Positions 1,842-62,115 of a stretch of 64,000 nt of DNA are shown here, piece after piece. The stretch spans positions 1,789 to 65,788 of the forward strand of contig JBEIQD010000003.1 in assembly GCA_040376695.1 (NCBI GenBank). Direction: 5' to 3'. The translations under genes and the position numbers were made by a program. Origin of the DNA: Candidatus Nomurabacteria bacterium (GTDB taxonomy: Bacteria; Patescibacteriota; Minisyncoccia; Phycocordibacterales; UBA5272). Within the stretch, counting starts at the first letter, position 1. The number at the start of each line of letters is the position of its first letter. The notes under the pieces are model-generated. The model ran no database searches. It was not told the origin of the DNA and saw only the letters and a program-made list of their open reading frames with translations.

Positions 1842-1850
1842 GACCGAAGC

Positions 1851-2294: not shown

Positions 2295-2301
2295 TGAGTA
2301 G

Positions 2302-3069
2302 CTACTCAGAAGCCTCTCTGTAAGGGTCGATATTGTATTTTGTCGGGGCCTTACTATAGGAAGCCGTTTGAGCCTCTGGGGTTACTGCTTTGTCGTCCCC
2401 CGCGTGAGGCATAAACTCCTGAAGGGCAATGTTTGAGTCTAAAGCCCTATCATCTTTTGCTTCTATTCCAGAGATTTGTTCCTGGATTTTCTTAAGTCGT
2501 TCAGAAACTTCTTCATCGTTTGGAATTGTGTCTAGTATTTGTAACTGTTCTAGAAGTTGAGAGCGGGATCCCGCTACCACTGTTGCTTTTTTAGCCGCAG
2601 CGGGCGCCGGACTTACTGTTGCCGGAATTGATGGTTGGTTTTGATTTAAAACAGCCACTGGCTCTCGTTTCGTTGTATCAAGGATCTCTTTTCGTAGCTC
2701 ATCTGGAGATCTCCCTTCTTGGAACGTTAGAGTGACCATATCTTTAGGAGATTTACCTAAAATGCTAATACGAGCTTTTTCTAGAATGGTTTTGTCCAAA
2801 TCAGCAGCAAGCTTATAAGCCTCTTCCTCAGAAAGGCCCAATATATCAACAATTGCCCGCACCACATCCGTTGGCTTTAAAGCGCCAATAAGAATAAACG
2901 AAATAATGTTTGAAAGCGCGATGTAGGAGCTTACGGGTATTTTATACACCTTGCCTAAGATCGCTGTTGCATTGTTCACTTCGTCACCATGAATAAGCTC
3001 CTGAATATCAGCCGGAGATTGATCAAATAAATCATCCTGATTTGTTGCTATGTATGACGGGTTACTCAT
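2302..3069 (-). CDS. hypothetical protein in the T4SS-like locus
   Basis: 255-aa ORF packed between the VirB6-like and PrgI-like genes with 2-8 nt spacing; no recognised motif. Confidence 0.5.
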   Translation of the reverse strand: MSNPSYIATNQDDLFDQSPADIQELIHGDEVNNATAILGKVYKIPVSSYIALSNIISFILIGALKPTDVVRAIVDILGLSEEEAYKLAADLDKTILEKARISILGKSPKDMVTLTFQEGRSPDELRKEILDTTKREPVAVLNQNQPSIPATVSPAPAAAKKATVVAGSRSQLLEQLQILDTIPNDEEVSERLKKIQEQISGIEAKDDRALDSNIALQEFMPHAGDDKAVTPEAQTASYSKAPTKYNIDPYREASE

Positions 3070-3071
3070 AA

Positions 3072-5552: not shown

Positions 5553-5668
5553 ACCGTGAAGTGTATCATGTCAAACGTCTCAATCATCGCCATTATTATG
5601 GATAAATCATAATTTCATAAAGAAAAATAGCCCCCGCAAGGGACTATATTTCTGTGTAAGTATTTATC

Positions 5669-7360
5669 TTAGAACGCACCACCGTCACCTCCCCCTGATT
5701 GATTATTTTGTTGGTAGCTTTGACGTATCTGAGCGCATTCCGTGGTGAGTCTAGGAATTGATCCCACAGAACTGTTGTCCTGCTTGATTGTGCCATTAAA
5801 TCTTACGAAATCAGCCTGTCTTTTTGAAGCTGCTGAAAGACTTGGAAGTCCTTGGTCTTCAACTTTTTTCTGATAATCACTAAATAGTGTTGTTATTTCC
5901 CCCGTCGATTTTGATGCAGCAACCGCAACAAGTGTGTCATTGATGAGGGTTCGCGTTGTGTTGATACCGTTAAGGTTTTTAGTTGACTCTGCCTGTGTAC
6001 TTTGAATAACAGCTAGTTTATTTGAAGTGAAGCTAAGCGCTGAAACAACGCGCGGATCGTTTTTTAGATTAAAATCTTCACCCAGCTTTTCATAACATAC
6101 TTGAATGGTTTGTATGCTATTTTGATACCCAGCCAGCTCAGCCAGGAAGCTTCGCTCAGTGCCTTCAAGTGAGTTTAAAGAAGTGAGGTGGGCTTGAAGT
6201 GGGGTTTGTACTGTACTTGCAGTTTCTGTTTGCTTGCTTGGAGTATCAAGATCTTGAATTTGATTTAAACTTGCTTGATTACTGTTCCCTGGAGAAATAT
6301 CAGATAGCTGTCGTGTAGAAGCCACAACCTGTAAAATTGAACTCAAACTGTTGAATATACCAGAACCAAAAGTACTTTCCAGTTTTTTTAATGGAGCGTT
6401 TAAAGCTTCCTGGAAGGCGCTACTCAAAGCACTTCCTGTATTTGTTATGGTTTCTACTCTACAAGGAACGTTTGCGATATCAGATCCGTCTGCTGTTGCT
6501 GGTTGGTCACACTTTGTGGCACTCGCGATACCTCCACCCCTGTTCAAGTCAGCTTCTGCTGCCTTTTCTTTTTTAGCTTTATCTTCCGCTATGGCAACTT
6601 GCGTTCGAACGCTTCGATTATATTCATTATCACCAAAACTTACCGCCAAAAGACTATCAGTTCCAGCTATATCTGGTCGTTGCTTACCAACTGCTTCCAG
6701 TTTTCTTGCAAGCGGAATGTTGATGGTTGGATTCCCTACACATAATGAGTTAAAAAGATCTTGTTTTCTGTTTTGGTATGCCTCTAAATCATACGTCCCG
6801 TCACTTTTCATTACATCATTCTTCGCTACGTTTGAAAGCGAAGCATCTTTACAGAGATTGTTTTGAACAATATTTGGAATTGAGGAGTTGCCCAAAGACC
6901 CCAAGACACTGGTGAGGTTAGAAGATCCTCTATAGCTATTAATGACACTTCCTAGAATACTTGAACTATATGTTCCATTCTGCTGAGAAATATCTCCAAT
7001 ATTAACCCTAACAGAATTTAGTCCTTTATTTTGAACCCATTGTTCAGGGTTTTGAACAAGAAGAGAGTTTCCACCAAGAGAACCTGTTATTAAGTTAATA
7101 GTGTTTGTTTGCTGTTGAATTTGAGCAAGTGCGATAAGGCCATTTCCTAATGGGTCAAGAACAGTATCCTGCAAAAAGCCGGTATAGGCATAAAACTCAG
7201 TAGCCACAGCTGAGGCGGCACTTATAAAGTCTTCCGCTAACTGAAGATATCTAGTAATTTCAGCTTGTGGGTCGAATACCACATATTGAGCATGAGTTGT
7301 TTGAACTGTTGAAAACAAAACAGTGAAGAAAAATGCTGATGTTATAAAAAAGTGTTTCAT
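5669..7360 (-). CDS. secreted hypothetical protein (signal peptide), Ser/Asn/Gln-rich
   Basis: Track ORF 5669..7393. The internal start MKHFFITSAFFFTVLFSTVQTTHA at 7360 gives a canonical signal peptide and avoids overlap with the upstream gene. Confidence 0.5.
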   Translation of the reverse strand: MKHFFITSAFFFTVLFSTVQTTHAQYVVFDPQAEITRYLQLAEDFISAASAVATEFYAYTGFLQDTVLDPLGNGLIALAQIQQQTNTINLITGSLGGNSLLVQNPEQWVQNKGLNSVRVNIGDISQQNGTYSSSILGSVINSYRGSSNLTSVLGSLGNSSIPNIVQNNLCKDASLSNVAKNDVMKSDGTYDLEAYQNRKQDLFNSLCVGNPTINIPLARKLEAVGKQRPDIAGTDSLLAVSFGDNEYNRSVRTQVAIAEDKAKKEKAAEADLNRGGGIASATKCDQPATADGSDIANVPCRVETITNTGSALSSAFQEALNAPLKKLESTFGSGIFNSLSSILQVVASTRQLSDISPGNSNQASLNQIQDLDTPSKQTETASTVQTPLQAHLTSLNSLEGTERSFLAELAGYQNSIQTIQVCYEKLGEDFNLKNDPRVVSALSFTSNKLAVIQSTQAESTKNLNGINTTRTLINDTLVAVAASKSTGEITTLFSDYQKKVEDQGLPSLSAASKRQADFVRFNGTIKQDNSSVGSIPRLTTECAQIRQSYQQNNQSGGGDGGAF

Positions 7361-7364
7361 AGAC

Positions 7365-8324
7365 TTAGTGTGTAATTCCATTATATCCCACAATATAAAT
7401 ATACCCAGGTTCAGTTGAGGTGAATGTTACATTTTTAAGATTAAAATAATCCCCCAACATAGGGTAAATTCTAATTGTTGCGGCAGTTACCTCTTGATAT
7501 TTTTTAAGAGCAACGGTTGCGCGAATAGCATCAGTGTTTGCGGCAGAAAGGTTTGCTAGAGTGTTACTGTACTCAGAAACTCTGTTAAGTGTTGTAAGGT
7601 GGTAAGGAAGTGCTGATTTCGGAACTTCTAATGCTAAAAGTTTCTTCGTTGCAGCTGCCACCTTTTCAGCATCAGCGGCTAAAGGAAGAAGGTTGCCCTC
7701 GTCTGCTGTTTGAAGATACCCGCTGACACTCACTAAATCTCTGGCAACAGTTTCTTTTGTAATAAGATTTTTAAGTATTGTTGCCACAGCGTTTCCGTAT
7801 TTCTTGATTGCTACTTTGTCATCAGTGGTAAGTTTTACGTCTGAAGACGCGTACACAGTTGCTGATACTTTTTGCCCCTCTTCGCTAAGGAGTTGTCCAA
7901 AAACTTCCTGTTTACTAGCCTCATCAACTATCCCGCTTTGCTGTAAAGCTGTCGAAGCAATGTAAGCATTTTTTGTAAATGACGCTGTTATATTATTTGG
8001 GTCATTCAGTATTGCAATCCCTTTCGCATCTGTTTCAAACGTTGCATTAGTGGCTTCTGGAGAAAGAGAAAGTGAGCTTGCGATCAGTTCACCCCAACTG
8101 ATTGCCCCATCATTATTAGTATCTGTTGCAAGATTTTCTGGTTGAGCGAGGTTTCCTAGATTCAGAGGTTCATATCGTCTCGTTTGCGGCTCTATTCCAA
8201 ACCAAGAGGCTGGAAGTAGAGATGTCCCAATCGTTAAAATGAAAACAATACCTAACAACAAGAGAGGTGTATTACTTTTTTCTTGCGAAATGAGGCTTTT
8301 AGATGTGGAGATGTTCATATTCAT
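7365..8324 (-). CDS. N-terminally membrane-anchored hypothetical protein
   Basis: Track ORF 7365..8525. The internal start MNMNISTSKSLISQEKSNTPLLLLGIVFILTIGTSLL (TM helix) at 8324 avoids overlap with the divergent hydroxylase gene. Confidence 0.45.
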   Translation of the reverse strand: MNMNISTSKSLISQEKSNTPLLLLGIVFILTIGTSLLPASWFGIEPQTRRYEPLNLGNLAQPENLATDTNNDGAISWGELIASSLSLSPEATNATFETDAKGIAILNDPNNITASFTKNAYIASTALQQSGIVDEASKQEVFGQLLSEEGQKVSATVYASSDVKLTTDDKVAIKKYGNAVATILKNLITKETVARDLVSVSGYLQTADEGNLLPLAADAEKVAAATKKLLALEVPKSALPYHLTTLNRVSEYSNTLANLSAANTDAIRATVALKKYQEVTAATIRIYPMLGDYFNLKNVTFTSTEPGYIYIVGYNGITH

Positions 8325-8411
8325 GAGTATACATCTAAAAATCACCCAAAAATCATTATTTGTTAACATGGTTAGTCTTTGTTTCAATAGTGGATTACAA
8401 TTTACTATGTA

Positions 8412-9164
8412 ATGATTATCCTTATTATCCTCTTTGTGGTTGTTGTTCTTGAATTTTCCTACAGTGCCTATGTTAGAGATGGAATGTATTCCAGAGAAAG
8501 CACACAAGTAAATATCTTTACTCAAGCTTTTGGTGTTTTGAAAGATGTTTTGATACCAAGTTTAGGAGTTATAGGTATTATTGGCTTCGTAAACGGAATA
8601 GTTCCGCATGTTCTAGAAATTCCCTTCACCTTATTTTCTTTCATTACTTGTTTACTTCTCATGGATTTTCTTTACTATCTTTTCCACCGAGCTAATCATT
8701 ATTTTGGATTACTGTGGATGTTTCATTTTGTTCACCACAGCGACACGAAGCTGAATCTAAGTGTTGGATTTAGATCTTCATGGTTTGAAATGGTTGGTCT
8801 ATTTGCAACATACTCCCTGCTTTTGGCGATAGGGTTCCCTCTATCTTTATTTTTGGCAGCATTCACAGTTACATCAACGTATCAATTTTTAACACACAGT
8901 AGGTATATACAAATACCAACTTATTTAGAATATGTTTTTGTAACACCACATTTCCACGCGACCCATCATGATAAAAGAATACAATATCAGAACAGTAATT
9001 TCGGAGGAGTTTTTAGCTTGTGGGATAGATTTTTTTCTACGTATGCAAAAGATGTAGAAGTTTCATCTTTTGGTATTGAAGGATATAAACAAAATAATGT
9101 TATTAAAATCCACACTGATCCGATTCTGCAGTATGTGCGCAGGAAGTTTAGAGCGCTGAAATAG
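8412..9164 (+). CDS. fatty acid hydroxylase / sterol desaturase superfamily membrane protein
   Basis: Three histidine boxes, HRANH, HFVHH and HFHATHH, within multi-TM hydrophobic stretches. Confidence 0.6.
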   Translation: MIILIILFVVVVLEFSYSAYVRDGMYSRESTQVNIFTQAFGVLKDVLIPSLGVIGIIGFVNGIVPHVLEIPFTLFSFITCLLLMDFLYYLFHRANHYFGLLWMFHFVHHSDTKLNLSVGFRSSWFEMVGLFATYSLLLAIGFPLSLFLAAFTVTSTYQFLTHSRYIQIPTYLEYVFVTPHFHATHHDKRIQYQNSNFGGVFSLWDRFFSTYAKDVEVSSFGIEGYKQNNVIKIHTDPILQYVRRKFRALK

Positions 9165-9955: not shown

Positions 9956-11908
9956 CTATATATAGACAACCGAACCCCCTCCTTGTTTGTAATACAGATC
10001 ATTATATTCTCCTGTGTCTTCTGGGATGTCTTCTAGAAACTCACTTGGTGCATTAATTTGTTTTTGACCAAAGATTGTTCTCAGTTCAGCATAGGTAAGG
10101 TAGAGATTTTTACGTGCTCGTGTTACTGCTACGTAGAACAATCTTCTCTCCTCCTCTTCCTCCTCTTTGCTGCGTTTTCGATTCCCTATGTTTTTATGCG
10201 GAAAGAGATCTTGTTCAAGTCCTGTAACGAATACATGATCAAACTCAAGGCCCTTTGAAGCGTGCACGGTCATAAGACGCACACCCGATTTTTCTTTTGT
10301 ATCGTTATCTTGATCTGACTGAAGAGATGTTTCTTCAAGAAATTGAGTAAGAATTTCTTTTGCAGGCACTCCATCATATCGCACAGTAAGAGATACAAGT
10401 TCGCGTGCGTTTTCTAAGCGCTCTCTATCTTCTCCAGAACCTTCTAGCATCTCTTTTTCCATTCCAGAATCTACGATAATCATTTGCATAATATGAGACA
10501 AAGGCTCTGTTTCAACGGCTTCCAAGATTTGGTCCAAAAAGTCATACACCTTTTCTATTTTTACCGCAGCTGAAGCAGGAATCGGTGCCCCTGCAAATAT
10601 TTTTGCAACCGTCACTTTACCAATTCCGCGTTTTGGAGTATCAAATACACGTTTAAGATCTGGTTGGCATGCACGATTAACTGCGGCGCGCAGGTAACTC
10701 ATTACATCCTTAACTTCTTTTCTTTCAAAGAATTTTGTACCCAAAAGGTTATAGGTCACGTTCGCACGGATAAATGCTTCTTCAAGTACGCGAGATTGAA
10801 AGTTTGCACGGTAGAGCACTGCAATAGTTTCTCCACCTACTCCTTCAGCAATTAAAGCTTTACATTTTTCTGCAATCATTTCAGACTCCCCTTGCTCATC
10901 CCACGCAGGCATAATAGTAATCTTGTCCCCTAACCCTTTTGAAGTAAATAAGTTTTTGTCAGTACGAATAGTGTTTTTCTTTATTGCCTTATTGGCAAGC
11001 GCGAGAATATTTCCTGTTGATCTGTAGTTTTCTTCAAGAAGTACAGTGTGTGTACCAGGAAAGTCCTTTTCAAAATTAAGAATATTACGCACGTTTGCCC
11101 CTCTCCAGCTGTAAATATTTTGATCAGTGTCACCTACAGCACACACGTTATTATAAAGAGGGTTAATGAGTAACTTAACGAAAGCGTATTGAGCGGCGTT
11201 GGTGTCTTGGTATTCATCAACATGCACATACATAAAACGTTGTTGATAATGAGAACGAATATCTGCATGGTCTTCCAACATGTGCACCGTGGAAACAATG
11301 AGATCGTCAAAGTCCACAGCTTTTTGTTTCTTGAGTTCCTCTTCATATATTCTCCACACACTTGAAATAATATCCATTTGAGCTGTCGCCACTTTTTGTT
11401 TATAGTCTTTCTGGCTTACGAAATCTCCTTTTTCACGACTAATAATACTGCGAATTTTTGAAGGATCATTGATTTTCGGATCAATACCTAATTGTTCAAT
11501 TGCTTGTTTGATAATCGAAAGTGAGTCCGAAGAATCTAAAATAGTAGGATGTCTTTGTAGTCCGAGCCGTGAACCGTATTCAGATAGCATCATAAGTCCA
11601 AGTGAATGGAATGTTTTAATGACAGGAGTGTGATGAAAGGGGTTCTCCTTTTCAATGATACGCTCCTCTTCAAGACGAGAGACGATACGTTCCCGCATTT
11701 CTTTAGCTGCTTTATTAGTGAAGGTTACCGCAAGGATATTTCTTGGGTCAGTGCCTTTTTTAACAATCTCAACGATTCTTTCAGTTATCGTTTTTGTCTT
11801 TCCGGCGCCTGCTCCAGCTAAAATAAGAAGCGGTCCTTCAGTATGAAGAACTGCTTCTTGTTGTTTTGTGTTAAGTAAGACGTTTGCCACAGGAACCCAG
11901 TGTAGCAT
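9956..11908 (-). CDS. pcrA: ATP-dependent DNA helicase PcrA/UvrD
   Basis: LNTKQQEAVLHTEGPLLILAGAGAGKTKTITERI Walker A plus UvrD/Rep helicase motifs throughout; 650 aa. Confidence 0.9.
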   Translation of the reverse strand: MLHWVPVANVLLNTKQQEAVLHTEGPLLILAGAGAGKTKTITERIVEIVKKGTDPRNILAVTFTNKAAKEMRERIVSRLEEERIIEKENPFHHTPVIKTFHSLGLMMLSEYGSRLGLQRHPTILDSSDSLSIIKQAIEQLGIDPKINDPSKIRSIISREKGDFVSQKDYKQKVATAQMDIISSVWRIYEEELKKQKAVDFDDLIVSTVHMLEDHADIRSHYQQRFMYVHVDEYQDTNAAQYAFVKLLINPLYNNVCAVGDTDQNIYSWRGANVRNILNFEKDFPGTHTVLLEENYRSTGNILALANKAIKKNTIRTDKNLFTSKGLGDKITIMPAWDEQGESEMIAEKCKALIAEGVGGETIAVLYRANFQSRVLEEAFIRANVTYNLLGTKFFERKEVKDVMSYLRAAVNRACQPDLKRVFDTPKRGIGKVTVAKIFAGAPIPASAAVKIEKVYDFLDQILEAVETEPLSHIMQMIIVDSGMEKEMLEGSGEDRERLENARELVSLTVRYDGVPAKEILTQFLEETSLQSDQDNDTKEKSGVRLMTVHASKGLEFDHVFVTGLEQDLFPHKNIGNRKRSKEEEEEERRLFYVAVTRARKNLYLTYAELRTIFGQKQINAPSEFLEDIPEDTGEYNDLYYKQGGGSVVYI

Positions 11909-12218: not shown

Positions 12219-14444
12219 TTATTTTTCCTTGTTAGTAACTTTCTCTTTTACTTCCTCGATTGCTGCTTCATACGTTTTTGCTTGTAGTTTCTCACCGCTT
12301 GTTGCCATCGAAACATCATTAAGCGCATCCCATAGGTAACTAAGTTCTGCTCTATCTTTATCATCTAGGTGATCATAAGTTCCTTTAGTTGTATCATTTC
12401 GCACGAGATCTCCAAACATACCAAGCGCTAACAATGTTTGACGCTGATTATTGGTCCCATCAAAGTATGACTTTGCGTATTTTTGTATTAGTGTTGCTTT
12501 AAGTTGGCTCGCAGAAAGCTTTGAAATATCTTCTGGAAATTCTGCAAAGGCAGGATTAGTTTTCCCGAAATGGAAATATTTAGTCCAAGTATCTTTTACT
12601 ACCACTTCATTTTTATTCAGTGACGCACTTATGGGTACTGGTTGTTTATTTAAAACATTATTTGCATATGCCCCTGTACCGCCAACTACAACAGCAAAAG
12701 CAATCCAAGAAAGTTTTCCTTTCGAGAGATTATTTGGATTGTTTGACAGGTTTTTGATTCTAGTCGCAAGTATGGCTGAGATTTTTTTAAGCCCTTTCTG
12801 TGGATCTTTTTCAAGAACGGGAATAATTTCTTTTGATTCATTGTTGGTAGCCATATTCCCCAGCACCACTTTGTCAGGAGTTGTCATCCCTTCCCCCATG
12901 GAGTTAGTAAGTAAATCTCGCACAGACTTGGTTACGAGATCTGGGTTTAATTTTTCTTCATCTGTTCGAGTGTCTTCCTTCTTCTCAGATTCCTTAACTG
13001 AAGATGGACCGTAAACCAATCTATTCTCTGAAAGAAAATTTTTTCGCTGTATGTCACTGAGTTTATTTTCTTTCGTAATAAAATCTTTAACTTCTACGTT
13101 GTGTGTAAAAAGAATGTTTTTAATAACATCTCGATATGGGTGCTTTCTAAGACTTTCGTTTTCCGTATAATCTACCGCCCCAGAAGCTTCATTTTTCGAA
13201 GCAACAGTATAGAGAGAAATAAAAGCTTTTTGATCATGAGTAAACATGTCTTCAAACTTTTCGCGCACTTCTGTCTGCGCGCGCGTTTTTTGGATGTTTT
13301 CTTCTGAGCCTTTAATTGCACCTGTTTCTCCTTTGGTCCATTCTGCATTTATTTTCCTTCCCCCGATAAGACGAATAATTTGTTCCTGTTTTTTTTCTGC
13401 CTGTTTTGTAGGACGTAATACAGAAGGACTTTCATTTATTTTTGGCGCTGTTGAAGCTTTAGAAGTTTCCGCAACAGGTTTTTCAGGAGTTGTTTTTGCG
13501 GATGTCTGTTGTCTTTCAAGGTATAGTCTTTCTAGTAAGTCTTTAAACGGCTTGAAATAGAATCTTTCAGTTCTGCCTTTTTGTGCTCCATCAATTTGTT
13601 TCATCATCATCGCCCCCTCTTTCGGCATAAGGATTGTAACCTCCCAAGTCGCTTCATCGCTCGTATGGTCCTTCGGTAAGAGGAATCTTTGCCCTACCTT
13701 AAAGAATTTTGGAACGACCTCTACTTTTTCTGGCGTTTTCGGCGAAGCTTCTGGAACGGTTGGCACACTTTCTTCTGCTGCGACTACTGCTGGTTCTTCA
13801 TTTTTAATTTGTGCTTCTGGTGCAATAGTTGGGGCTGGTATTTTTGCGGCTTCTGCTTTTGCGCGTTCTACAATTTTTTCAAACTCAGAAAGCTTTTGTC
13901 GTAGTTCATCAAGCTTTGCCCCTAATGGCTTATCTTTAATTTCTTCAATAAGTTTCTTTGTTTCTTCTGAAAGTTGTTCAAGTACAGCAAGGGTTGCAGG
14001 ATTCTGTAATTTCCCTTCCAGTAGTTCAGTTTCCTTGTGTAAATTTGAATATTCGCCCGAAAACGCAACAAGTTTACTTAGAATATCCAACTCAACTTTT
14101 TTCTGCGCCGCAGCAAGTGTAAGTTTCTCTCCAAGTGCATCTTCCAATTCTTCTTGTGTATAAAGATCTGAAGGTAGGTTTATTTCAGAAATTCCCTCGG
14201 CATCTCTTTCCAAAGTGAAACCTCTTTTCTTAAGCATCTTTTCTATTTGTAAAAGCTCTTGAAATCTAGCGTTTCGCACCTCTCCTCCTACTTGAGGAAC
14301 ACTAGAAATCACCTCCTTCGGTACAACTTTTTTATCAACAGTAACACCAAAAGTACCAGGGGTGTACCCTTTATTTGTTACAGGTTTCCCGAACTCTCCC
14401 TGAGACCCATTGGGAACTTTAATACCAGAAGGATATATATCCAT
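12219..14444 (-). CDS. large hypothetical protein (K/E-rich, one predicted TM segment near the C-terminus)
   Basis: 741-aa uninterrupted ORF; no recognised catalytic motif. Confidence 0.5.
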   Translation of the reverse strand: MDIYPSGIKVPNGSQGEFGKPVTNKGYTPGTFGVTVDKKVVPKEVISSVPQVGGEVRNARFQELLQIEKMLKKRGFTLERDAEGISEINLPSDLYTQEELEDALGEKLTLAAAQKKVELDILSKLVAFSGEYSNLHKETELLEGKLQNPATLAVLEQLSEETKKLIEEIKDKPLGAKLDELRQKLSEFEKIVERAKAEAAKIPAPTIAPEAQIKNEEPAVVAAEESVPTVPEASPKTPEKVEVVPKFFKVGQRFLLPKDHTSDEATWEVTILMPKEGAMMMKQIDGAQKGRTERFYFKPFKDLLERLYLERQQTSAKTTPEKPVAETSKASTAPKINESPSVLRPTKQAEKKQEQIIRLIGGRKINAEWTKGETGAIKGSEENIQKTRAQTEVREKFEDMFTHDQKAFISLYTVASKNEASGAVDYTENESLRKHPYRDVIKNILFTHNVEVKDFITKENKLSDIQRKNFLSENRLVYGPSSVKESEKKEDTRTDEEKLNPDLVTKSVRDLLTNSMGEGMTTPDKVVLGNMATNNESKEIIPVLEKDPQKGLKKISAILATRIKNLSNNPNNLSKGKLSWIAFAVVVGGTGAYANNVLNKQPVPISASLNKNEVVVKDTWTKYFHFGKTNPAFAEFPEDISKLSASQLKATLIQKYAKSYFDGTNNQRQTLLALGMFGDLVRNDTTKGTYDHLDDKDRAELSYLWDALNDVSMATSGEKLQAKTYEAAIEEVKEKVTNKEK

Positions 14445-18861: not shown

Positions 18862-19125
18862 TTACTTCAAACCGAGTTTTGTAACGAGAGCAGTGTATCG
18901 CTTCTTGTTATTTGCCTCGAGATACTTCAAATGTGTGCGTCGGTCAGCAACCATCTGAATAAGTCCACGACGTGAGTGATTGTCCTTCTTGTGTGTCTTA
19001 AGGTGGTTAGTGAGTTCAACGATCTTCTTTGAAAGAAGTGATACCTGAACATCGGCAGAGCCAGTGTCTGTATCGTGAATCTGGGCGTTTTTAATGGCCG
19101 TAGCCTTTTTTCGTGCAGTAAGCAT
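18862..19125 (-). CDS. rpsO: 30S ribosomal protein S15
   Basis: 87 aa; GSADVQVSLLSKKI...LKTHKKDNHSRRGL...RR..LKYL is a canonical S15. Confidence 0.9.
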   Translation of the reverse strand: MLTARKKATAIKNAQIHDTDTGSADVQVSLLSKKIVELTNHLKTHKKDNHSRRGLIQMVADRRTHLKYLEANNKKRYTALVTKLGLK

Positions 19126-19249
19126 ATTGATTAACTATAGGATGTATTGTATCACACATTTCAAACAATTGCAAGTGCTCCCCTGTTGCGCTGCCTTATC
19201 CCCAATACTATTGTGCGACACTAGCCTCTATCTGCTATATACTCATATA

Positions 19250-20209
19250 ATGCAAAGCTTATCGAGCCTAAAAGCTGACTTCCTTCAATACATAGAGATT
19301 GAAAAGGGTCGCTCCCCTCTTACGGTAAGGAATTACGACCATTATCTCAGTCGATTCCTAGATTTCATCAAAGTTGAGTCCCCATCCGACATCACAGAAT
19401 CAATGATGCGTGAATATCGTGTATATTTGAACCGTTTACCAGCAAAACCTCCCAAAAAAGGTAGTAAAAAGAGCGTTGTTACAGAAACATTAGATAAAAA
19501 GACCCAGAATTATCACCTAATTTCACTTCGTGCGTTCCTGAAGTATATGCGTAAGCAGGGTTTCCAAGGGTATGATCCTGAACGAATAGAGCTTGCGAAG
19601 ACTTCTTCCCGAGAACTCGATCTTATTTCTGAAAAGGAATTACAGAATCTTATGGCCGCCCCAGATACTTCTACTATCTTAGGTCTTCGTGATCGAGCAA
19701 TGCTTGAGCTTTTCTTTTCAACAGGTCTTCGCGTTTCAGAGCTTTGTTCGCTTGATCGTGACACTGATTTAAAGACAGGAGAAATCTCTATTCGTGGAAA
19801 AGGTGGAAAGATACGAGTTGTGTTCGTCTCTGGCGCTGCACTACTTGCTGTAAAGAAATATATTGAAGCACGTGTTGATATTGATGAAGCAATGTTTATT
19901 GATCACTCCCCTCGCGCACATGCTCGTATTGTTCGTGAGGAGTCTATCCGCCTTACCCCTCGTTCAGTTGAAAGAGTGGTTGAGAAATATGCAATGATTG
20001 CTGGTATTGCAAAAAAGTGTACCCCCCACGTGATTCGTCACTCGTTTGCTACCGATCTTCTCTATAATGGTGCTGATCTTCGTACGGTTCAGCTGATGTT
20101 GGGACATGCTTCTATTGCCACAACACAAATTTACACGAACGTAACTAATAAATTCCTTCGTGATCAGTTTGAGAAATTCCATTCAAAACGAGATTCAAAG
20201 AAGGAGTAG
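19250..20209 (+). CDS. xerC: tyrosine site-specific recombinase XerC/XerD family
   Basis: The C-terminal catalytic region HVIRHSFATDLLYNGADLRTVQLMLGHASIATTQIYTNV holds the R-H-R-Y active-site residues. The internal start MQSLSSLKADFL at 19250 is preferred over the track start 19094, which overlaps rpsO. Confidence 0.85.
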   Translation: MQSLSSLKADFLQYIEIEKGRSPLTVRNYDHYLSRFLDFIKVESPSDITESMMREYRVYLNRLPAKPPKKGSKKSVVTETLDKKTQNYHLISLRAFLKYMRKQGFQGYDPERIELAKTSSRELDLISEKELQNLMAAPDTSTILGLRDRAMLELFFSTGLRVSELCSLDRDTDLKTGEISIRGKGGKIRVVFVSGAALLAVKKYIEARVDIDEAMFIDHSPRAHARIVREESIRLTPRSVERVVEKYAMIAGIAKKCTPHVIRHSFATDLLYNGADLRTVQLMLGHASIATTQIYTNVTNKFLRDQFEKFHSKRDSKKE

Positions 20210-25891: not shown

Positions 25892-27268
25892 ATGTTAGAC
25901 ATTAAAGCGTTGAAGGTTGCCCTCGAGCAGCTCGAACAAGAAAAGAAAATTAGCCACGAAAAAGTGGTAGACGCAGTAGAGAAATCTCTTGCTGCAGCGT
26001 ACCAGAAAGAATATGGAAAGCGCGGACAGATTGTTCGTTGCCAAATTAACTTTGAAACTGGTGAAACAAGTTTCGAACAAGTAAAAATTGTTGTTGATGA
26101 ATCAACTGTTCGTATGCCAGTTGAAGGAGAAGAGGAAGTATATGAACCTATCATCGCAGAAGGTGAAAGTGTTGATGGTCTTCTTCCGCGATACAACGAA
26201 GAGCGTCATATTCTTCTTGGAACTGCAAAGCTTCTTAAGAAAAACGCTATTCTTGCTGAAGAAATTGTGTTCCCTCTTGATAATCAAGATGACTTCGGAC
26301 GTATTGCTGCGCAAACTGCAAAGCAGGTTATTGTTCAGAAGCTCCGTGAAGCAGAACGCGAAAGTATTGTTGGAGAATTTACAGATAAGGAAAATACTAT
26401 CGTGTCAGGTGTTGTTCAGCGTGTAGAGCGTGGAACAGCATTCATTGACCTTGGACGCACAACGGCAATTCTTCCATTTGAGGAACAGATTCCATCAGAA
26501 CGTCTTCGTCCAGGCGAGCGTATTCGTTGTTACCTTTTCTCTATTGAAGAAGGTTTCCGCGGACTCTCTATTCGTCTCTCACGTACACATCCAAAGTTCT
26601 TGATTGAACTCTTTAAAAATGAAAGTGCGGAAATTGCACAAGGTGTTGTTGAAATTGTTGCTGTTGCTCGTGAACCAGGAAGTCGTTCAAAGATTGCTGT
26701 TAAATCAAACGATGAACGAGTAGATCCAATTGGAGCATGTGTTGGACAACGTGGCGTTCGAGTGTCAGCCATTACCGATGAACTCTCAGGAGAAAAGATC
26801 GACGTTATCGAATGGTCATCTGACTCACGTCGTTTTATCGCAACCGCACTCTCTCCAGCAAAGGCTGTTTCTATCGAGCTTAACGAAGATGAGAAGAAGG
26901 CTGTTGTAACGGTGGCACCAGAAGAGCAGTCTCTCGCTATTGGTAAGGGTGGACAGAACGTTCGCCTTGCTGCAAAGCTCACAGGATGGAAGATTGATAT
27001 CGTATCAGGTGGTGAAATGATTGCAGAAGCTGATGAAGCAGGAATGTTTACAGAAAATCAGATTGTTGATGAAACTCTTTCAGAAGAAGTAGGAGAAGTA
27101 ATGGAAGCATTGAATGTAACAGAAGAGGAAGTTATCAAAGCAACAGTGGAAGAGGTATCAACTGAAGAATCAGTAGTTGATGAAATTATTGCTGATGAAG
27201 GAGCTTCTACTACAGAAGGAACAGGGCTTGATAAGGAAGCCGTTGATGCTGCCGAAGAAACAAAATAA
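25892..27268 (+). CDS. nusA: transcription termination/antitermination factor NusA
   Basis: 458 aa with N-terminal domain, S1 and two KH domains (IGACVGQRGVRV..., IGKGGQNVRLAAKLTG), and an acidic C-terminal tail. Confidence 0.9.
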   Translation: MLDIKALKVALEQLEQEKKISHEKVVDAVEKSLAAAYQKEYGKRGQIVRCQINFETGETSFEQVKIVVDESTVRMPVEGEEEVYEPIIAEGESVDGLLPRYNEERHILLGTAKLLKKNAILAEEIVFPLDNQDDFGRIAAQTAKQVIVQKLREAERESIVGEFTDKENTIVSGVVQRVERGTAFIDLGRTTAILPFEEQIPSERLRPGERIRCYLFSIEEGFRGLSIRLSRTHPKFLIELFKNESAEIAQGVVEIVAVAREPGSRSKIAVKSNDERVDPIGACVGQRGVRVSAITDELSGEKIDVIEWSSDSRRFIATALSPAKAVSIELNEDEKKAVVTVAPEEQSLAIGKGGQNVRLAAKLTGWKIDIVSGGEMIAEADEAGMFTENQIVDETLSEEVGEVMEALNVTEEEVIKATVEEVSTEESVVDEIIADEGASTTEGTGLDKEAVDAAEETK

Positions 27269-27298: not shown

Positions 27299-27835
27299 AT
27301 GAGTTTAAATTTACTCCACGATGTTACTCCAGGAGACAATATACCTAACGAAGTTACCGTAGTTATTGAAATCAATAAAGGTTCAAAGAACAAATACGAA
27401 CTTGATAAGGCGACAGGTTTAATTAAGCTTGATCGTGTTATGAAGACATCTCAAGATTATCCATTTGATTATGGATTTGTTCCGCAAACACATTGGCATG
27501 ATGGAGACCCTCTTGATATCGTTCTTTTGACCACCTATCCACTCATTCCAGGCATTCTTGTTACTGTGCGACCTGTTGCAGTTATGGACATGATCGATGG
27601 TGGTGAAAGTGATGCAAAAGTTATCGCAGTGCCGGTGGATGATCCACGGTTCGATAACGTACAGGATATTGGAGACATCAACCCTCATACACTTAAGGAG
27701 ATTGATCACTTCTTTACAACCTATAAAACTATTCAAGGGAAAGTTGTAACAATTCCAACAGTACGAGATGCAGCTGCTGCAAAGGAAGTCATTCTAGAAG
27801 GAATCGCTCTCTACAAAAAAGAGTTCAATAAATAA
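27299..27835 (+). CDS. ppa: inorganic pyrophosphatase (family I)
   Basis: DPLDIVLL, DYGFVPQT and DGD.DAKVIAV motifs. Confidence 0.9.
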   Translation: MSLNLLHDVTPGDNIPNEVTVVIEINKGSKNKYELDKATGLIKLDRVMKTSQDYPFDYGFVPQTHWHDGDPLDIVLLTTYPLIPGILVTVRPVAVMDMIDGGESDAKVIAVPVDDPRFDNVQDIGDINPHTLKEIDHFFTTYKTIQGKVVTIPTVRDAAAAKEVILEGIALYKKEFNK

Positions 27836-27859: not shown

Positions 27860-28969
27860 ATGAAAATAACATTAACAAAACTTCCAAAATCTATCGCAGA
27901 ACTCAACATTGTTGTTGATGAAACAGAATTTGAAACATATCACCAGAAAGGATTTAAGCGTGTACAGGAAATGGTGGAAGTGGACGGTTTTCGAAAAGGA
28001 AATGCGCCAGAAGATATGATTATAAAAAAGTACGGTGACATGATTATTCTAGAAGAGATGGCTAACCTTGCGTTGCGTGATGCATATGTAAAGGCGGTGG
28101 ATGAACACAAGATCTCCCCTATCACTGAACCAAAAGTAACTATCACAAAATTAGCTAAAGGAAATCCACTTGAACTTACTATCACGGTGTCACTTATGCC
28201 AGAAGTAGAACTTCCTGCGTATAAGAAGCTTGCAAAGGAATCTATGAAAGATGAAGAAGCAGTCGTCGTATCTGATAAAGATATTGATGACGTTCTTGAA
28301 GAACTTCGTAAGGGTCGAGTAACACAACATGATCACGATCACGCTGGACACGACCATAATCACGATCACGATTCGCACGAGGGTCATGATCACGCTGAAG
28401 GCGAAGGTCATGAACACGAAGAAGGGGTGGAGGCTTCCCCAGCTGAACTCCCAGCGCTTGATGATGAATTCGCCCAGAGTTTTGGCCCAGACTTCAAATC
28501 ACTTTCTGACCTTAAAACCAAGGTTGAAGAAAATCTTAAACTTGAAAAGGAACAGAAAGCACGAGAGAAGAGACGCACTGCAATTATGGAGAAACTTGTT
28601 GAGGAAACAAAAGTAGATCTTCCAGACGCAATCGTCGAAAGTGAGCTACAGAACATGCTTGCTCAAATGAAAGCGGATGTAACTCGTTTCGGTGGAACAT
28701 GGGAAGATTACCTTACTCATACAAAGAAGACAGAAGATGAAATCAAAGCTGATTGGGTAACTGATGCTGTGAAGCGTGCAATGAGTCAACTTATTTTGCA
28801 TAAGATTGCAGAAGCTGAAAAGCTTACAGCAACTGATGATGAAATTGAAGTTGAGCTTGTTCGCCTATTAACTCAGGTACAAGACGCTGACGAAGAACGC
28901 GCTAAGAGTTATTTGTACCAGGCTCTTACAAATGAAAAGGTTCTTAAGTTCTTAGAAGAATCTAAGTAA
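27860..28969 (+). CDS. tig: trigger factor lacking the PPIase domain, with a His/Asp-rich insert
   Basis: N-terminal ribosome-binding signature GFRKGNAPEDMI and a C-terminal arm domain (ELPALDDEFAQSFG...). The region between them is RVTQHDHDHAGHDHNHDHDSHEGHDHAEGEGHEHEE instead of an FKBP fold. Confidence 0.8.
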   Translation: MKITLTKLPKSIAELNIVVDETEFETYHQKGFKRVQEMVEVDGFRKGNAPEDMIIKKYGDMIILEEMANLALRDAYVKAVDEHKISPITEPKVTITKLAKGNPLELTITVSLMPEVELPAYKKLAKESMKDEEAVVVSDKDIDDVLEELRKGRVTQHDHDHAGHDHNHDHDSHEGHDHAEGEGHEHEEGVEASPAELPALDDEFAQSFGPDFKSLSDLKTKVEENLKLEKEQKAREKRRTAIMEKLVEETKVDLPDAIVESELQNMLAQMKADVTRFGGTWEDYLTHTKKTEDEIKADWVTDAVKRAMSQLILHKIAEAEKLTATDDEIEVELVRLLTQVQDADEERAKSYLYQALTNEKVLKFLEESK

Positions 28970-28974: not shown

Positions 28975-29005
28975 AAAGAAATAGAAAAGCGGCACCTAAC
29001 GGTGC
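28975..29005. terminator. bidirectional terminator between tig and the DoxX gene
   Basis: gaaaagcggcacc-taac-ggtgccgcttttc. Confidence 0.7.
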
Positions 29006-29033
29006 CGCTTTTCTATTGAGATAGTACTACGTA

Positions 29034-35057: not shown

Positions 35058-35064
35058 CTTATAG

Positions 35065-35135
35065 TGCGGCGTAAGAGAATCGAACTCTTGTCTCCTGCTT
35101 GGAAGGCAGGCATTCTACCACTAAACCAACACCGC
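35065..35135 (-). tRNA. tRNA-Gly (anticodon UCC), no encoded CCA
   Basis: Cloverleaf by hand: acceptor GCGGTGT/ACGCCGC, anticodon loop CTTCCAA, T-arm GAGTTCGATTCTC. Confidence 0.8.
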
Positions 35136-35244
35136 TTGTAGAGACTATACTACTACATTTCTTTTAATTTTTCCAGAGTACATGCAAAATGTTTAAAATG
35201 TGATAGGATATATACACGTTTCTGCAAGGTTACAGAGGAAATAT

Positions 35245-35317
35245 CGGAGTGTGGTGTAACGGCTAACATTTTGGTTTTGGGTACCAAAGACTCAGGGTTC
35301 GAATCCCTGCACTCCGA
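35245..35317 (+). tRNA. tRNA-Pro (anticodon UGG), no encoded CCA
   Basis: Acceptor CGGAGTG/CACTCCG, anticodon stem TTGGT/ACCAA with loop TTTGGGT, T-arm CAGGGTTCGAATCCCTG. Confidence 0.8.
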
Positions 35318-35323
35318 CTATAA

Positions 35324-35357
35324 ACAACAAATCCGCCACGTGGCGGATTTGTTGTTT
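35324..35357. terminator. hairpin terminator after tRNA-Pro, convergent with the YraN-like gene
   Basis: aacaacaaatccgccacgtggcggatttgttgtt. Confidence 0.6.
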
Positions 35358-35368
35358 TAGTATAAAGC

Positions 35369-35770
35369 TTACTCTTTTAGTATATTTTCCATAAATACCA
35401 CTCTCCCCTCCCTTATTTCAGGATTAATATACACACAAGCTAAATCCATTTGCCAAGGTGTTCCACGTGTAACGTCTGTATGGCGTAGGTAGACTTCAAC
35501 ACTTATGACAAGTTTATTCCATTTATCTTGAGTTAGGTTATCTTCTGGTTGTACAGCTAGATTCTCCAGGTTGTTGAAATCTCTGACTTTTACACTTTTA
35601 ACTTCAATGAATCTTAGTTTGTTGTCCTTTTTCGCAATAATATCTATTTCACCAAACTTAGTACGATAGTTTGTGCCAACAACGGTAAAACCATGTTTCA
35701 TGAGAAACGTTTTTGTTATATTTTCACCTATTCTTCCAATTTCGTTATGTTCAGCCATGTTTGTAATCAT
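35369..35770 (-). CDS. YraN/UPF0102 family endonuclease-like protein
   Basis: GE.DIIA...LRFIEVK motif (GEIDIIAKKDNKLRFIEVKSVK). Confidence 0.65.
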   Translation of the reverse strand: MITNMAEHNEIGRIGENITKTFLMKHGFTVVGTNYRTKFGEIDIIAKKDNKLRFIEVKSVKVRDFNNLENLAVQPEDNLTQDKWNKLVISVEVYLRHTDVTRGTPWQMDLACVYINPEIREGRVVFMENILKE

Positions 35771-35937
35771 TTCATGAGAAACGATTATTTTGTTTCACGT
35801 GAAACGTTTGTCCTTCTTATTCCACTTTGCCTTTAATAAAAAGGGCAAAGACCTTTTAAAAAGATATATAAATCAATGCTTTTTTACAATTAAAGCCAGT
35901 ATTTGTACAATCTGCCCTCTACGTACTTTACTGTCTT

Positions 35938-35967
35938 TTATCCACTGTTCCCACAGGTTTATCCACA
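35938..35967 (+). promoter_or_regulatory. tandem DnaA-box-like cluster (TTATCCACT, TTCCCACAG, TTATCCACA) spaced about one helical turn apart
   Basis: Read directly: cttttatccactgttcccacaggtttatccacagtt. An AT-rich stretch, ttttaaaaagatatataaatcaatgcttttttacaattaaag, lies immediately upstream (35860-35900). Confidence 0.3.
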
Positions 35968-36088
35968 GTTTTGAACTTTAGAAGGGGTTTCATGTGGAAC
36001 AGTCAGCAAGAGAAACGTGGCTTGTTTCCCCTTGATAGAAGAGGGGATTATGCTAGAATGGTGTTACTAAATAAACAGATTTAGTGTT

Positions 36089-36159
36089 GCGGTGTTGGTT
36101 TAGTGGTAGAACACGACCTTGCCAAGGTTGAGACAGGAGTTCGATTCTCCTACGCCGCA
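36089..36159 (+). tRNA. tRNA-Gly (anticodon GCC), no encoded CCA
   Basis: Acceptor GCGGTGT/ACGCCGC, anticodon stem CGACC/GGTTG with loop TTGCCAA, T-arm GGAGTTCGATTCTCC. Confidence 0.8.
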
Positions 36160-36240
36160 CAGATTAGTCCTATTTTTCAAATAGAGACCACATGTAGAAA
36201 TATATTCTTCGTTACACGAGAAACGTTTAGTCACTTTTTG

Positions 36241-36312
36241 TGCTTCCACCAGGATTCGAACCTGGAACGACGGTTCCGAAGACCGTTGTGATATCCATTT
36301 CACCATGGAAGC
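36241..36312 (-). tRNA. tRNA-Arg (anticodon UCG), no encoded CCA
   Basis: Reverse complement gives acceptor GCTTCCA/TGGAAGC, D-arm GTGA..TCAC, anticodon stem ACGGT/ACCGT with loop CTTCGGA, T-arm CCAGGTTCGAATCCTGG. Confidence 0.75.
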
Positions 36313-52272: not shown

Positions 52273-52590
52273 ATGGCAACAAAAAAAACTACAGTAGAAG
52301 AAAAGAAAGTTGAGAATGCAAATGCAAAGCTTATTCTTTCACCACGTGTGACAGAAAAAGCATCACTTCAGTCAAACCAGAACGCGTTTACATTCGTTGT
52401 GCGATCTGAAGCTACAAAGCTTTCACTTCGCGATGAAATCAAGAAGGAGTACAAGGTAACACCTCGTGCGATCAACATCACAAACATTCCTCGTCAGTGG
52501 ACCTTCATTAAAGGAAAAGTTGGACACAAGCAGGGTTATAAGAAAGCTATTGTGTTCCTTAAAAAAGGTGACACCATCAAGCTTGCATAA
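52273..52590 (+). CDS. rplW: 50S ribosomal protein L23
   Basis: 105 aa; the L23 fold signature (ILSPRVTEKA...FTFVV). Confidence 0.9.
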   Translation: MATKKTTVEEKKVENANAKLILSPRVTEKASLQSNQNAFTFVVRSEATKLSLRDEIKKEYKVTPRAINITNIPRQWTFIKGKVGHKQGYKKAIVFLKKGDTIKLA

Positions 52591-57055: not shown

Positions 57056-57169
57056 TTGTATCCCCATTTTATCCTTTCTTCATAGGCACTATTCTCGTAT
57101 ACTGAACGTATGCTTTCGGGTCATTTTTCCATGTTTTATAAACTCTTTTCTTTACACAAGAGGGCGGTA

Positions 57170-60622: not shown

Positions 60623-60625
60623 TTC

Positions 60626-61684: not shown

Positions 61685-61759
61685 TTATATTGTAAGAGAG
61701 GAGTTTGAGGTGTAGTATGTTTGCAGTACGTTCAATAGTAAGAAAAGAAAGGAAACCGC

Positions 61760-62014: not shown

Positions 62015-62035
62015 AGCTTTCAATAAAACCGAGCA

Positions 62036-62066: not shown

Positions 62067-62115
62067 GTAGGCGTAGCCCTTGACATAAATGGTAAAGTAA
62101 TGTAGGATTGGGCAC

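Follow-up and report, generated by a model that had tools for sequence, protein, structure and literature searches.

Trigger factor and His-rich chaperones

Trigger factor is the first chaperone met by every bacterial nascent chain, and its docking partner on the ribosome is protein L23. Its three-domain architecture has, to our knowledge, been treated as universal. In E. coli, the PPIase head of this architecture comprises residues 150-245 (PMC4626277), though the PPIase activity of trigger factor is not central for its bulk function (PMC7840056). An engineered E. coli trigger factor from which the PPIase domain has been removed (Gupta et al. 2010 FEBS Lett) is still active, as far as the article citing that work relates it (PMC4626277). 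This variant has the same two-domain architecture as the protein described here, but it was made in the laboratory and has no His cluster, whereas the present protein is a natural and clade-wide form. In the literature on trigger factor and on CPR, Patescibacteria and Parcubacteria, natural trigger factors that lack the PPIase or bear His were not found described, the engineered PPIase deletion being the only case. The statement of the sequence-only reading that PPIase-less trigger factors are known from reduced genomes thus found no backing in the literature searched. The Mycoplasma trigger-factor-related chaperone (NF045969; MPN555, PDB 1zxj) likewise resembles the trigger factor C-domain and has no PPIase domain. 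Our protein matches it weakly, however (19.4 bits against a cut-off of 140 for NF045969), and is a full tig orthologue that includes the ribosome-binding domain.

His-rich segments occur on several other proteins of protein folding and metal homeostasis. SlyD, an FKBP-type PPIase and general folding helper whose His/Cys-rich tail binds metal, is a nickel-binding protein in H. pylori, and HspA of the same species is a GroES with a His/Cys-rich, nickel-sequestering C-terminal extension, Hpn/Hpn-2 and SlyD being further precedents (PMC7840056). HspA is an abundant housekeeping chaperone with a lineage-specific His(/Cys)-rich segment for nickel storage, and in function it is the nearest analogue of what we propose below; the trigger factor studied here likewise carries a lineage-specific His(/Cys)-rich segment. 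HspA nonetheless belongs to another chaperone family, bears its segment at a terminus and not in an internal loop, and serves a nickel-dependent pathogen physiology that is not evident here. SlyD differs in that it keeps its FKBP and IF domains, has its tract at the C-terminus and is not ribosome-docked, whereas the present tract forms an internal loop in a protein without any FKBP match and thus without the SlyD-type FKBP domain with inserted IF domain. The SlyD model NF008008, whose cut-off is 174, gave 16.9 bits in a match confined to the tail (positions 147-182, E 0.0045). The resemblance to the His-rich tail of SlyD that had been drawn from the sequence alone therefore holds for composition and fails for homology, the likeness between the two segments being compositional only. 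The cytoplasmic loops of ZIP and CDF transporters and ZrgA share the (H-D/E-H)n composition as well, and loop residues 155-192 weakly matched Zip (PF02535), DmeF, the nickel/cobalt efflux family PRK10019 (RcnA-type) and ZrgA. These are membrane or periplasmic proteins without common ancestry with the loop, and homology to metal-protein models was ruled out, the matches being compositional and far below cut-offs. A PDB sequence search with a HVHEDGSVHSHSH-type loop, made for known metal-site motifs, likewise returned only a chance-level ZnT3 loop (E 9.6).

A trigger factor without its PPIase head

The window, by which we mean the whole 64 kb stretch of DNA analysed, contains tig as an ORF at 27860..28969 on the + strand, with an ATG start and 369 aa plus stop. 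A sequence-only reading had described it as a trigger factor whose PPIase domain is replaced by a His/Asp-rich insert; the ORF, its length and the quoted strings GFRKGNAP, QHDHDHAGHDHNHDHDSHEGHDHAEGEGHEHEE and ELPALDDEFAQSFG are all present as that reading had them. The N-terminal ribosome-binding domain and linker helix (aa 1-149; 27860..28306, + strand) are matched by Pfam PF05697 Trigger_N (E 7.8e-33). This region includes the signature GFRKGNAP (aa 43-50; 27986-28009, + strand), in which G43, F44, R45 and G47 are invariant in alignments of homologues. The C-terminal chaperone 'arms' domain (aa 197-366, beginning LPALDDEF; 28448..28957, + strand) is matched over aa 214-361 by PF05698 Trigger_C (E 3.7e-29). 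With canonical Tig of E. coli and V. cholerae (TIGR00115; 1w26, 2vrh, 1t11) the protein shares the GFRxGxxP signature, down to its residue numbers, the N-terminal L23-binding domain, the C-terminal two-arm cradle and its best fold match; it differs in having no FKBP head, the place of which is taken by a 43-aa His/Asp/Glu loop.

Several lines of analysis agree on this layout. TIGR00115 'tig' scored 221.7 bits in two matched stretches, above the equivalog threshold of 180.2. In the alignment to V. cholerae trigger factor (1t11), query residues 2-168 correspond to chain residues 5-166 and query residues 193-345 to chain residues 244-386, and the gap left between the two stretches means that the PPIase block is missing. 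Pfam gave no FKBP_C match in the tig product at E<=1, and the N and C domains are separated by just 43 residues. The AlphaFold2 (AF2) model has a mean pLDDT of 83.6 and finds as its top Foldseek match E. coli trigger factor 2vrh_A (E 1.9e-13, TMq 0.63); its N-domain matches the fold of the N-domain structures 1oms and 1p9y, and its C-terminal arms are all-helical with pLDDT of about 88-94. The ORF is thus a true trigger factor with intact N and C domains from which the FKBP head is gone, and the earlier description of a head replaced by a loop of about 40 aa is borne out by Pfam, the 1t11 alignment and AF2/Foldseek alike. An assembly or frameshift artefact was ruled out, the ORF being intact and its architecture repeated in more than 400 independent assemblies. 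With its signature motif intact, the protein would be expected to dock on L23 at the exit tunnel and to chaperone nascent chains.

The His-rich loop

The loop in place of the FKBP/PPIase head (aa 154-196; 28319..28447, + strand) lies between the stretches matched to solved trigger factors and is flanked by LRKGR and LPALDDEF. It holds 12 His and 14 D/E residues and no K/R, and its His residues fall in a cluster of 12 in 30 residues (aa 157-186; 28328..28417, + strand), a putative multi-ion metal-binding tract built of HDH and HEGHDH units. Outside the loop, 4 His were counted in 327 residues, and the probability of at least 12 in 43 is about 1e-13. No comparable His-rich stretch was found elsewhere in any reading frame of the 64 kb window, whose long ORFs contain 1.9% His, and His richness across the proteome was ruled out on these grounds. 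AF2 predicts the loop to be disordered, with pLDDT below 50 across aa 158-194.

This composition would also suit a metal-independent device, in which a His-rich acidic loop titrates near cytoplasmic pH and so tunes the conformation, dimerisation or ribosome affinity of trigger factor, or simply acts as an entropic, solubilising bristle. The predicted disorder agrees with such a switch or bristle, as do the His-free loops of other lineages, which are likewise acidic, K/E/D-rich connectors. The Cys residues and the fixed H-x-H and H-x3-H spacing found in related loops (see below) would be left unexplained, however, and we consider this account very improbable.

At the DNA level, the tract is no simple repeat. 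Tandem Repeats Finder gives only two imperfect local two-copy duplications with 80-83% matches, one of 27 nt (28328-28380) and one of 24 nt (28378-28425), together spanning 28328..28425 on the + strand, and both codons for His are in use (8 CAC, 4 CAT). The duplications probably record how the tract expanded. Microsatellite slippage as the sole cause was ruled out by the imperfect two-copy repeats and the mixed codons, together with the retention of His through synonymous changes in relatives.

Conservation and variation among relatives

The nearest homologues belong to Nomurabacteria/Paceibacterota within Patescibacteria, and the titles of GTDB loci name Nomurabacteria, Paceibacterota, Parcubacteria, Yonathbacteria and Minisyncoccia among others. 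All of the 120 nearest (66-99% identity) consist of Trigger_N and Trigger_C only, without PPIase, and have 5-19 His in the loop, where His makes up 27% of residues as against 1.3% of the remaining protein. The PPIase domain is also absent from a further 120 listed proteins and from ten distant representatives scanned, so that its loss is common to all close and distant relatives retrieved, all of them Patescibacteria. What had been read as a feature of one gene is instead a trait shared across the clade's trigger factors. The His cluster itself is such a clade-wide trait, and the long tract of the window an expanded form of shorter, discrete motifs. At least three His+Cys residues are present in the loops of 172 of the 178 members of the window's cluster (at least 45% identity) and of 129 of the 134 members of the sister cluster.

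The loop around these residues is far less constant. Lengths between 20 and 73 aa occur even in close relatives, and indels separate orthologues that are 96-99% identical. In relatives the loop has accepted in-frame insertions, namely palindromes of 48 and 18 nt and, in a single case, a GIY-YIG domain; the 48-nt in-frame loop element had no match in a strict metagenome scan and was found at two loci in a relaxed one. Variable length, disorder and accepted insertions are typical of a loop under weak constraint. Among more distant PPIase-less trigger factors, judged on the best 150 representatives listed, 73 of 148 have a loop free of His, which indicates that the cluster is dispensable for chaperone function.

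These observations are what would be expected of a neutral low-complexity expansion, in which loss of the head left a permissive disordered spacer that filled with functionless HDH-type codon repeats by slippage or duplication. The disordered tract of the AF2 model, the local 27-nt and 24-nt duplications, the drift in length, the unrelated insertions and the His-free distant representatives would all fit. Neutral growth does not readily account for a 15-fold enrichment of His in the loop over the remaining protein across 447 sequences, nor for two large clades that keep the cluster in 96-97% of their members. His positions stay while spacers and length drift, and they do so via synonymous codon changes: among aligned positions, 313 of 405 His are kept, 172 of these with the other codon, against 369 of 955 non-His loop positions. 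This count is biased, since alignment programs tend to match His to His where sequence is of low complexity. Comparison of the window protein with its two nearest relatives shows 23 of 24 His retained, 11 of them through synonymous changes. The sister clade's fixed four-His spacing, modelled as ordered, the confinement of Cys to these clusters, the mixed codons that set the tract apart from a microsatellite and the lack of a second His tract in the window weigh against neutral growth as well, and we judge it improbable. The sequence-only reading had allowed that absence or variability of the insert in close relatives would point the same way; the cluster proved to be kept in relatives, so that the idea withstood this check, and it is in loop length and spacer sequence that variability was found.

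Fixed-spacing and Cys-bearing variants

In the sister clade, four conserved His columns (90, 50, 80 and 90% His) form the pattern HEH...HxxxH, a short, fixed H-x-H...H-x3-H motif that is ordered in the AF2 model. The model of the sister-clade protein P0350 has a mean pLDDT of 90.9, with loop values of 74-76 and no residue below 50, and its loop contains a short helix (172-178) bearing H175; the four His of its motif are H164, H166, H175 and H179. Other lineages have Cys within the His cluster, as in the motifs HVHEDGTVHSHSH, HVHGEDCDHSH and HDENCNH, and a four-Cys version of the loop, SCCTDEKCEDNKC, occurs as well. Cys-bearing loops number 23, of which 22 also contain His, and the same 23 proteins have no Cys elsewhere.

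Such discrete motifs could serve a purely structural purpose, a single Zn holding the end of the linker helix of the N-domain against the beginning of the C-domain and thereby taking over the mechanical role of the head, without storage or delivery of metal; the long tract would then be an over-grown staple. The conserved spacing of the four-His motif (HxH plus Hx3H) and the ordered loop and short helix of P0350 would agree with this, as would the His/Cys and four-Cys versions, which resemble structural Zn sites, and the position of the window protein's first His residues, which the AF2 model places at the C-terminal end of helix 139-158. However, many PPIase-less trigger factors manage with a plain connector of 4-15 aa without ligands, which implies that no staple is needed, the 5-19 His of the window's clade lie far above what one site requires, and the window's tract is predicted to be disordered. 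We regard a structural staple as rather unlikely.

Proposed role of the loop

The explanation that we favour, and hold to be reasonably probable, is that of a PPIase-less ribosome chaperone whose His loop binds divalent metal and has here expanded to a multi-ion tract acting as a buffer at the ribosome exit. The window's tig encodes the organism's trigger factor, presumably ribosome-associated, which retains its L23-docking N-domain together with its C-terminal substrate cradle and has lost the head; a short acidic loop now stands at the point where the chain once left and re-entered the body to form it. In many lineages this loop carries a selected His cluster, sometimes with Cys, whose side chains may coordinate a divalent metal, most likely Zn2+, with Ni2+ or Co2+ as possible alternatives. 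The site of sister clades would be discrete and probably hold a single ion, with H-x-H plus H-x3-H on a short helix. Short duplications in the lineage of the window would have produced the disordered 12-His tract in HDH units, which could hold several ions with moderate affinity. Since trigger factor normally ranks with the most abundant proteins of the cytosol, the tract would serve as a metal buffer or reservoir at the ribosome exit, much as the His-rich tails do in SlyD and Helicobacter HspA, and it might pass metal to emerging clients as well. The earlier suggestion of a metal-binding add-on gains comparative support from the fixed His spacing, the Cys residues within the cluster and the retention of His through synonymous codon change, whereas the disorder and drifting length of the window's tract, the His-free loops of distant relatives and the lack of metal-related genes among the roughly 50 window ORFs scanned weigh against it. 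The sequences and models establish the identity of the trigger factor, the loss of its PPIase and the position, composition, conservation and variants of the loop; metal binding, the metal concerned and its physiological role we infer.

In a stronger version, which we consider decidedly improbable, the trigger factor of a large part of the Patescibacteria (CPR) would have exchanged its head for a metal site and would serve, tethered to the ribosome, as a metallochaperone or Zn reservoir from which nascent chains are supplied with metal, or their metal buffered, on leaving the exit tunnel. Bacteria would then have a counterpart, built on a chaperone, of the eukaryotic ZNG1-METAP1/NAC arrangement (discussed in PMC11672702).

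In these uncultivated, genome-reduced Patescibacteria, every relative retrieved lacks the PPIase head and many carry a conserved His or His + Cys cluster in its place. Should metal be bound, a highly abundant cytosolic protein would buffer or donate metal close to the ribosome in organisms that have very few genes dedicated to metal handling, and co-translational metalation in bacteria would become directly testable. Even without metal binding, these proteins amount to a natural large-scale experiment on the dispensability of the trigger factor PPIase domain. On the practical side, trigger factors with a His loop should bind IMAC resin tag-free.

Gene neighbourhood and ribosomal partner

The source organism is a groundwater candidate-phyla bacterium. 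The genes of the window include pgk, tpiA, a sigma factor, nusA, ppa, tig, DoxX, rsmE, clpP, rny, r-protein operons and similar genes; among the roughly 50 window ORFs scanned, none was found for a PPIase, metal transporter, metalloregulator or metalloenzyme maturation. Upstream of tig and on the same (+) strand lie nusA (25892-27268) and ppa (27299-27835), both identified by Pfam, and the order nusA-ppa-tig is kept in relatives (loci L081, L082). Downstream, a perfect 17-bp hairpin (28980..29017, no strand assigned), likely a bidirectional terminator, lies between tig and the DoxX gene, whose stops converge, and clpP follows 2.7 kb downstream of tig. In the r-protein operon, a gene at 52273..52590 (+ strand) occupies the L23 position between L4 and L2, both Pfam-confirmed, and is assigned to L23 by this position and by the motif VTEKAS, whose Glu we take to be the counterpart of Glu18 of E. 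coli L23, the docking Glu.

Identity of the headless trigger factor

The ORF at 27860-28969 (+) encodes a protein of 369 aa that is best named a PPIase-less trigger factor (TF). Pfam assigns aa 1-149 to Trigger_N (E 7.8e-33) and aa 214-361 to Trigger_C (E 3.7e-29), with no FKBP_C match even at E<=1, and the tig equivalog model of NCBIfam reaches 221.7 bits (cut-off 180.2) in two matched stretches. In E. coli TF, the FKBP-type PPIase domain, or head, spans residues 150-245, between the N (1-149) and C (246-432) domains (PMC4626277). When the window protein is aligned with solved trigger factors, two blocks result, query residues 2-168 corresponding to 5-166 of V. cholerae TF and 193-345 to 244-386; the head, being the reference block between both stretches, is missing. 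The AlphaFold2 model, with 86 homologues as input, has a mean pLDDT of 83.6 and a sole low-confidence segment at aa 158-194 (pLDDT <50), and in structure comparison it most resembles ribosome-bound E. coli TF (2vrh_A, E 1.9e-13, TMq 0.63) and other trigger factors. The ribosome-binding signature and the cradle are intact, and every TF family character tested is present but the FKBP domain.

The head position is occupied by a loop (aa 154-196, bounded by LRKGR and LPALDDEF) containing 12 His, 14 Asp/Glu and no Lys or Arg, compared with 4 His in the 327 residues counted outside it (P ~1e-13); the remaining reading frames of the 64 kb window contain no similar His tract. As ORF, Pfam, NCBIfam, alignment, model and loop composition agree, the sequence-only reading of this gene as a PPIase-less trigger factor with a His-rich insert is borne out in its coordinates, quoted peptides and description. 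Its comparison with SlyD extends to composition alone, the window protein being no SlyD relative. The tract DNA contains two imperfect local duplications of 27 nt and 24 nt with mixed His codons, which points to growth by short duplications and subsequent divergence with His retained.

Conservation of the histidine cluster

A homologue search of 5.8 billion proteins returned 2540 matches, the best 120 of which (66-99% identity) were examined. All 120 comprise Trigger_N and Trigger_C only, measure 346-399 aa and carry a His cluster immediately behind ELRKGR; the loop varies from 20 to 73 aa (median 37) and its His count from 5 to 19 (median 10). In these 120, 27% of loop residues are His, against 1.3% in the remaining protein. 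The sequence-only reading had held that absence or variability of the insert in close relatives would point to a non-functional low-complexity expansion: the His cluster proved present throughout the best 120 of 2540, while length and spacers do vary.

Searched exhaustively with HMMER, 1.84 billion cluster representatives yielded 805 clusters at E<=1e-30. Of these, the best 150 (34-57% identity) have lengths of 320-390 aa, except for two fragments of 210 and 255 aa and three longer proteins of 418-447 aa, and FKBP_C was found in none of ten scanned representatives, the three longest included. Among the 148 full-length representatives of these 150, about 60 have at least three loop His and 73 have none, the His-free loops being Lys/Glu/Asp-rich connectors of 0-56 aa. 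Across 447 pooled unique sequences His is enriched 14.8-fold in the loop (18.6% of its residues, compared with 1.26% outside it). When the N and C domains are clustered by average linkage at 45% identity, the window protein falls in a cluster of 178, with at least three His+Cys in 172, next to a sister cluster of 134, with at least three in 129; His-bearing and His-free types are interleaved in the remaining small clusters. Judging from these sequences, the His cluster is therefore kept wherever present, yet patchy at depth. The head is absent in all sampled relatives, and the His cluster is conserved at its position.

Constraint within the loop was assessed by pairwise alignment of the window protein with 39 orthologous genes. 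Aligned loop His are kept in 313 of 405 cases (172 of the 313 using the other His codon) and aligned non-His loop positions in 369 of 955, a contrast that is inflated because aligners favour His-His pairing in such sequence. The closest two relatives (96-97% identity) retain 23 of 24 His, with synonymous changes at 11 of these. Loop length and spacers are variable, with indels even among orthologues 96-99% identical, and relatives' loops contain foreign in-frame insertions (a 48-nt element, an 18-nt palindrome and a GIY-YIG domain). Because of this length variation, the indels and the insertions, the loop is best regarded as exposed and permissive, the conserved thing being the presence of the His cluster rather than the loop itself.

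Loop variants

Six loop forms occur at this one site among relatives. Form (a), the window type, consists of long (HDH / HEGHDH)n tracts; form (b) is a fixed short QHAHEHEEHDHSDPNHTH(D/E)VKPED found in many 352-aa proteins; form (c), H-V-H-E-D-G-T-V-H-x-H-S-H, occurs at about ten loci; form (d) combines His and Cys (HVHGEDCDHSH, HDENCNH and one four-Cys version, SCCTDEKCEDNKC); and form (e) reads A-H-x3-H...H-x-H-[DN]-H...EIKDED. Form (f), which belongs to a sister clade around the TF protein P0146, has H-x-H plus H-x3-H in a loop of 25-30 aa, as in RPP-H-E-H-KEGETEEE-H-AKA-H-AEIPESEWP, and an alignment of 119 sequences 57-73% identical to P0146 shows four conserved His columns (90, 50, 80 and 90% His). 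The AlphaFold2 model of P0350, a TF of this clade, has a mean pLDDT of 90.9, with 74-76 in the loop and 0 residues below 50; a short helix at 172-178 bears H175, with H179 one turn further. Cys is found in 23 loops, accompanied by His in 22, and elsewhere in the protein in 0 of the 23. Ligand-like fixed spacing, ordered prediction and Cys alongside His make the loop look like a metal site, and unlike the drifting low-complexity tract that a neutral expansion would leave.

Insertions in relatives' loops

The 48-nt element, GCGAAGAGCGACGAAGACGTCG[T/A]AAGCCAGCAGGCG[A/T]CGACGCAA, is GC-rich and hairpin-forming and encodes (E)AKSDEDV(E/V)SQQA(S/T)TQ in-frame within the TF loop of several relatives. 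It is near-identical in two genes with products that share 92% and 76% identity with the window protein, although the flanking loop DNA has diverged. Copies lie within the tig linker of two relatives' loci at approximately 3035-3082 (L081) and 10520-10567 (L082), longer versions near 6501-6620 (L012) and 2600-2700 (L083), and a non-coding intergenic copy at 625-653, just past a gene end, in L084, an unrelated 115-kb metagenome contig; the window has none. The element resembles REP elements or Rickettsia palindromic elements. L084 also has, at 4777-4914 (-), a T-box leader match below threshold (38.6 bits, gathering score 93, E 4e-6), which directly precedes a 1152-aa ORF for a putative aminoacyl-tRNA synthetase.

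The perfect 18-nt palindrome CCTGCCTGCGCAGGCAGG lies in-frame in the tig linker of another locus (L005, about 3669-3686) and encodes LPAQAG on either strand. Many other TF loops contain LPAQAG-, LPAHAG-, SAGSAG- or PARP...AGG-type peptides too, which suggests that small palindromic insertions of a second family exist. In the TF protein P0140 (447 aa), a GIY-YIG nuclease domain (PF01541, residues 202-269, E 3.8e-14) sits at the exact PPIase position between Trigger_N (1-148) and Trigger_C (290-424), and may stem from a mobile endonuclease that entered the permissive loop or from a fusion at gene calling.

Proposed function

PPIase activity is not central for bulk TF function (PMC7840056) and an engineered TF deprived of this domain continues to assist folding (Gupta et al. 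2010, as cited in PMC4626277), so the window protein very probably functions as a chaperone. The pattern across relatives is solid, and for the function we infer that the cluster of His, or of His plus Cys, binds divalent metal. In the short forms, the H-x-H plus H-x3-H site would take up one ion, probably Zn, and the 12-His tract of the window protein would hold several ions with moderate affinity. Less probable alternatives are a neutral low-complexity expansion, a Zn staple of purely structural role and a pH or charge switch that involves no metal. Since trigger factor is usually abundant, the tract, as a metal binder, could buffer or store metal where the nascent chain leaves the ribosome. 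The closest functional precedents are Helicobacter HspA, Hpn and SlyD, HspA being a GroES that bears a His/Cys-rich nickel-sequestration extension (PMC7840056). That the tract hands metal to nascent chains is speculative; a comparable idea exists in eukaryotes for ZNG1-METAP1 at the NAC site (PMC11672702).

Our literature search found no description of natural PPIase-less trigger factors in CPR bacteria, nor of a His cluster in any trigger factor. Head absence is no hidden knowledge, since Pfam annotations in databases already display the domain architecture; as for the conserved His/Cys cluster, neither it nor its variants appear to have been described so far.

Gene neighbourhood and other features

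The closest genome is a MAG from New Zealand groundwater (JAHFMX010000005.1, 96% identity), and the titles of related loci include Candidatus Nomurabacteria, Paceibacterota, Parcubacteria, Yonathbacteria, Minisyncoccia, Elulimicrobiales and 'Patescibacteria group'. Relatives share with the window the gene order pgk, tpiA, sigma factor, nusA, ppa and tig, then DoxX and rsmE on the opposite strand, followed by clpP and rny. Where tig (stop at 28969) and the DoxX-family gene (stop at 29034) converge, a perfect 17-bp stem with a 4-nt loop (28980-29017) is likely a bidirectional intrinsic terminator. The 17-pair 'hairpin' flagged by the terminator scan inside the His tract, at 28328-28364 (-), is a by-product of CACGAT/CATGAT codon repeats and no terminator. 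The window also contains S12-S7-EF-G-EF-Tu genes and an r-protein operon (L3, L4, L2, S3); a candidate L23 ORF, assigned by its position between L4 and L2, retains, in the motif VTEKAS, the Glu at which TF docks. No PPIase, metal transporter or metal regulator was found among the ~50 window ORFs scanned.

Four tRNA genes of alternating orientation, Gly-TCC (-), Pro-TGG (+), Gly-GCC (+) and Arg-TCG (-), lie within 1.25 kb at 35064-36312, with a UPF0102 gene amid them. Large ORFs without Pfam match (1173-8525 and 12219-14444, -) form a run of 825, 573, 385, 254 and 221 aa, with another of 740 aa standing apart; together with the adjoining PrgI-family protein (1851-2294) they may be a type-IV-secretion or conjugation-like block, as is typical for CPR genomes. 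Within 57110-63468 (+), a tail-fibre-like protein of 1170 aa matches Peptidase_S74 (endosialidase-chaperone) twice and, below threshold, a C1q-like domain (23.3 bits, cut-off 23.7), and its gene is followed by a 352-aa ORF without match and a gene for a peptidoglycan-binding-domain protein; these genes and a tyrosine integrase at 19094-20209 (+) may be prophage or surface-fibre genes.
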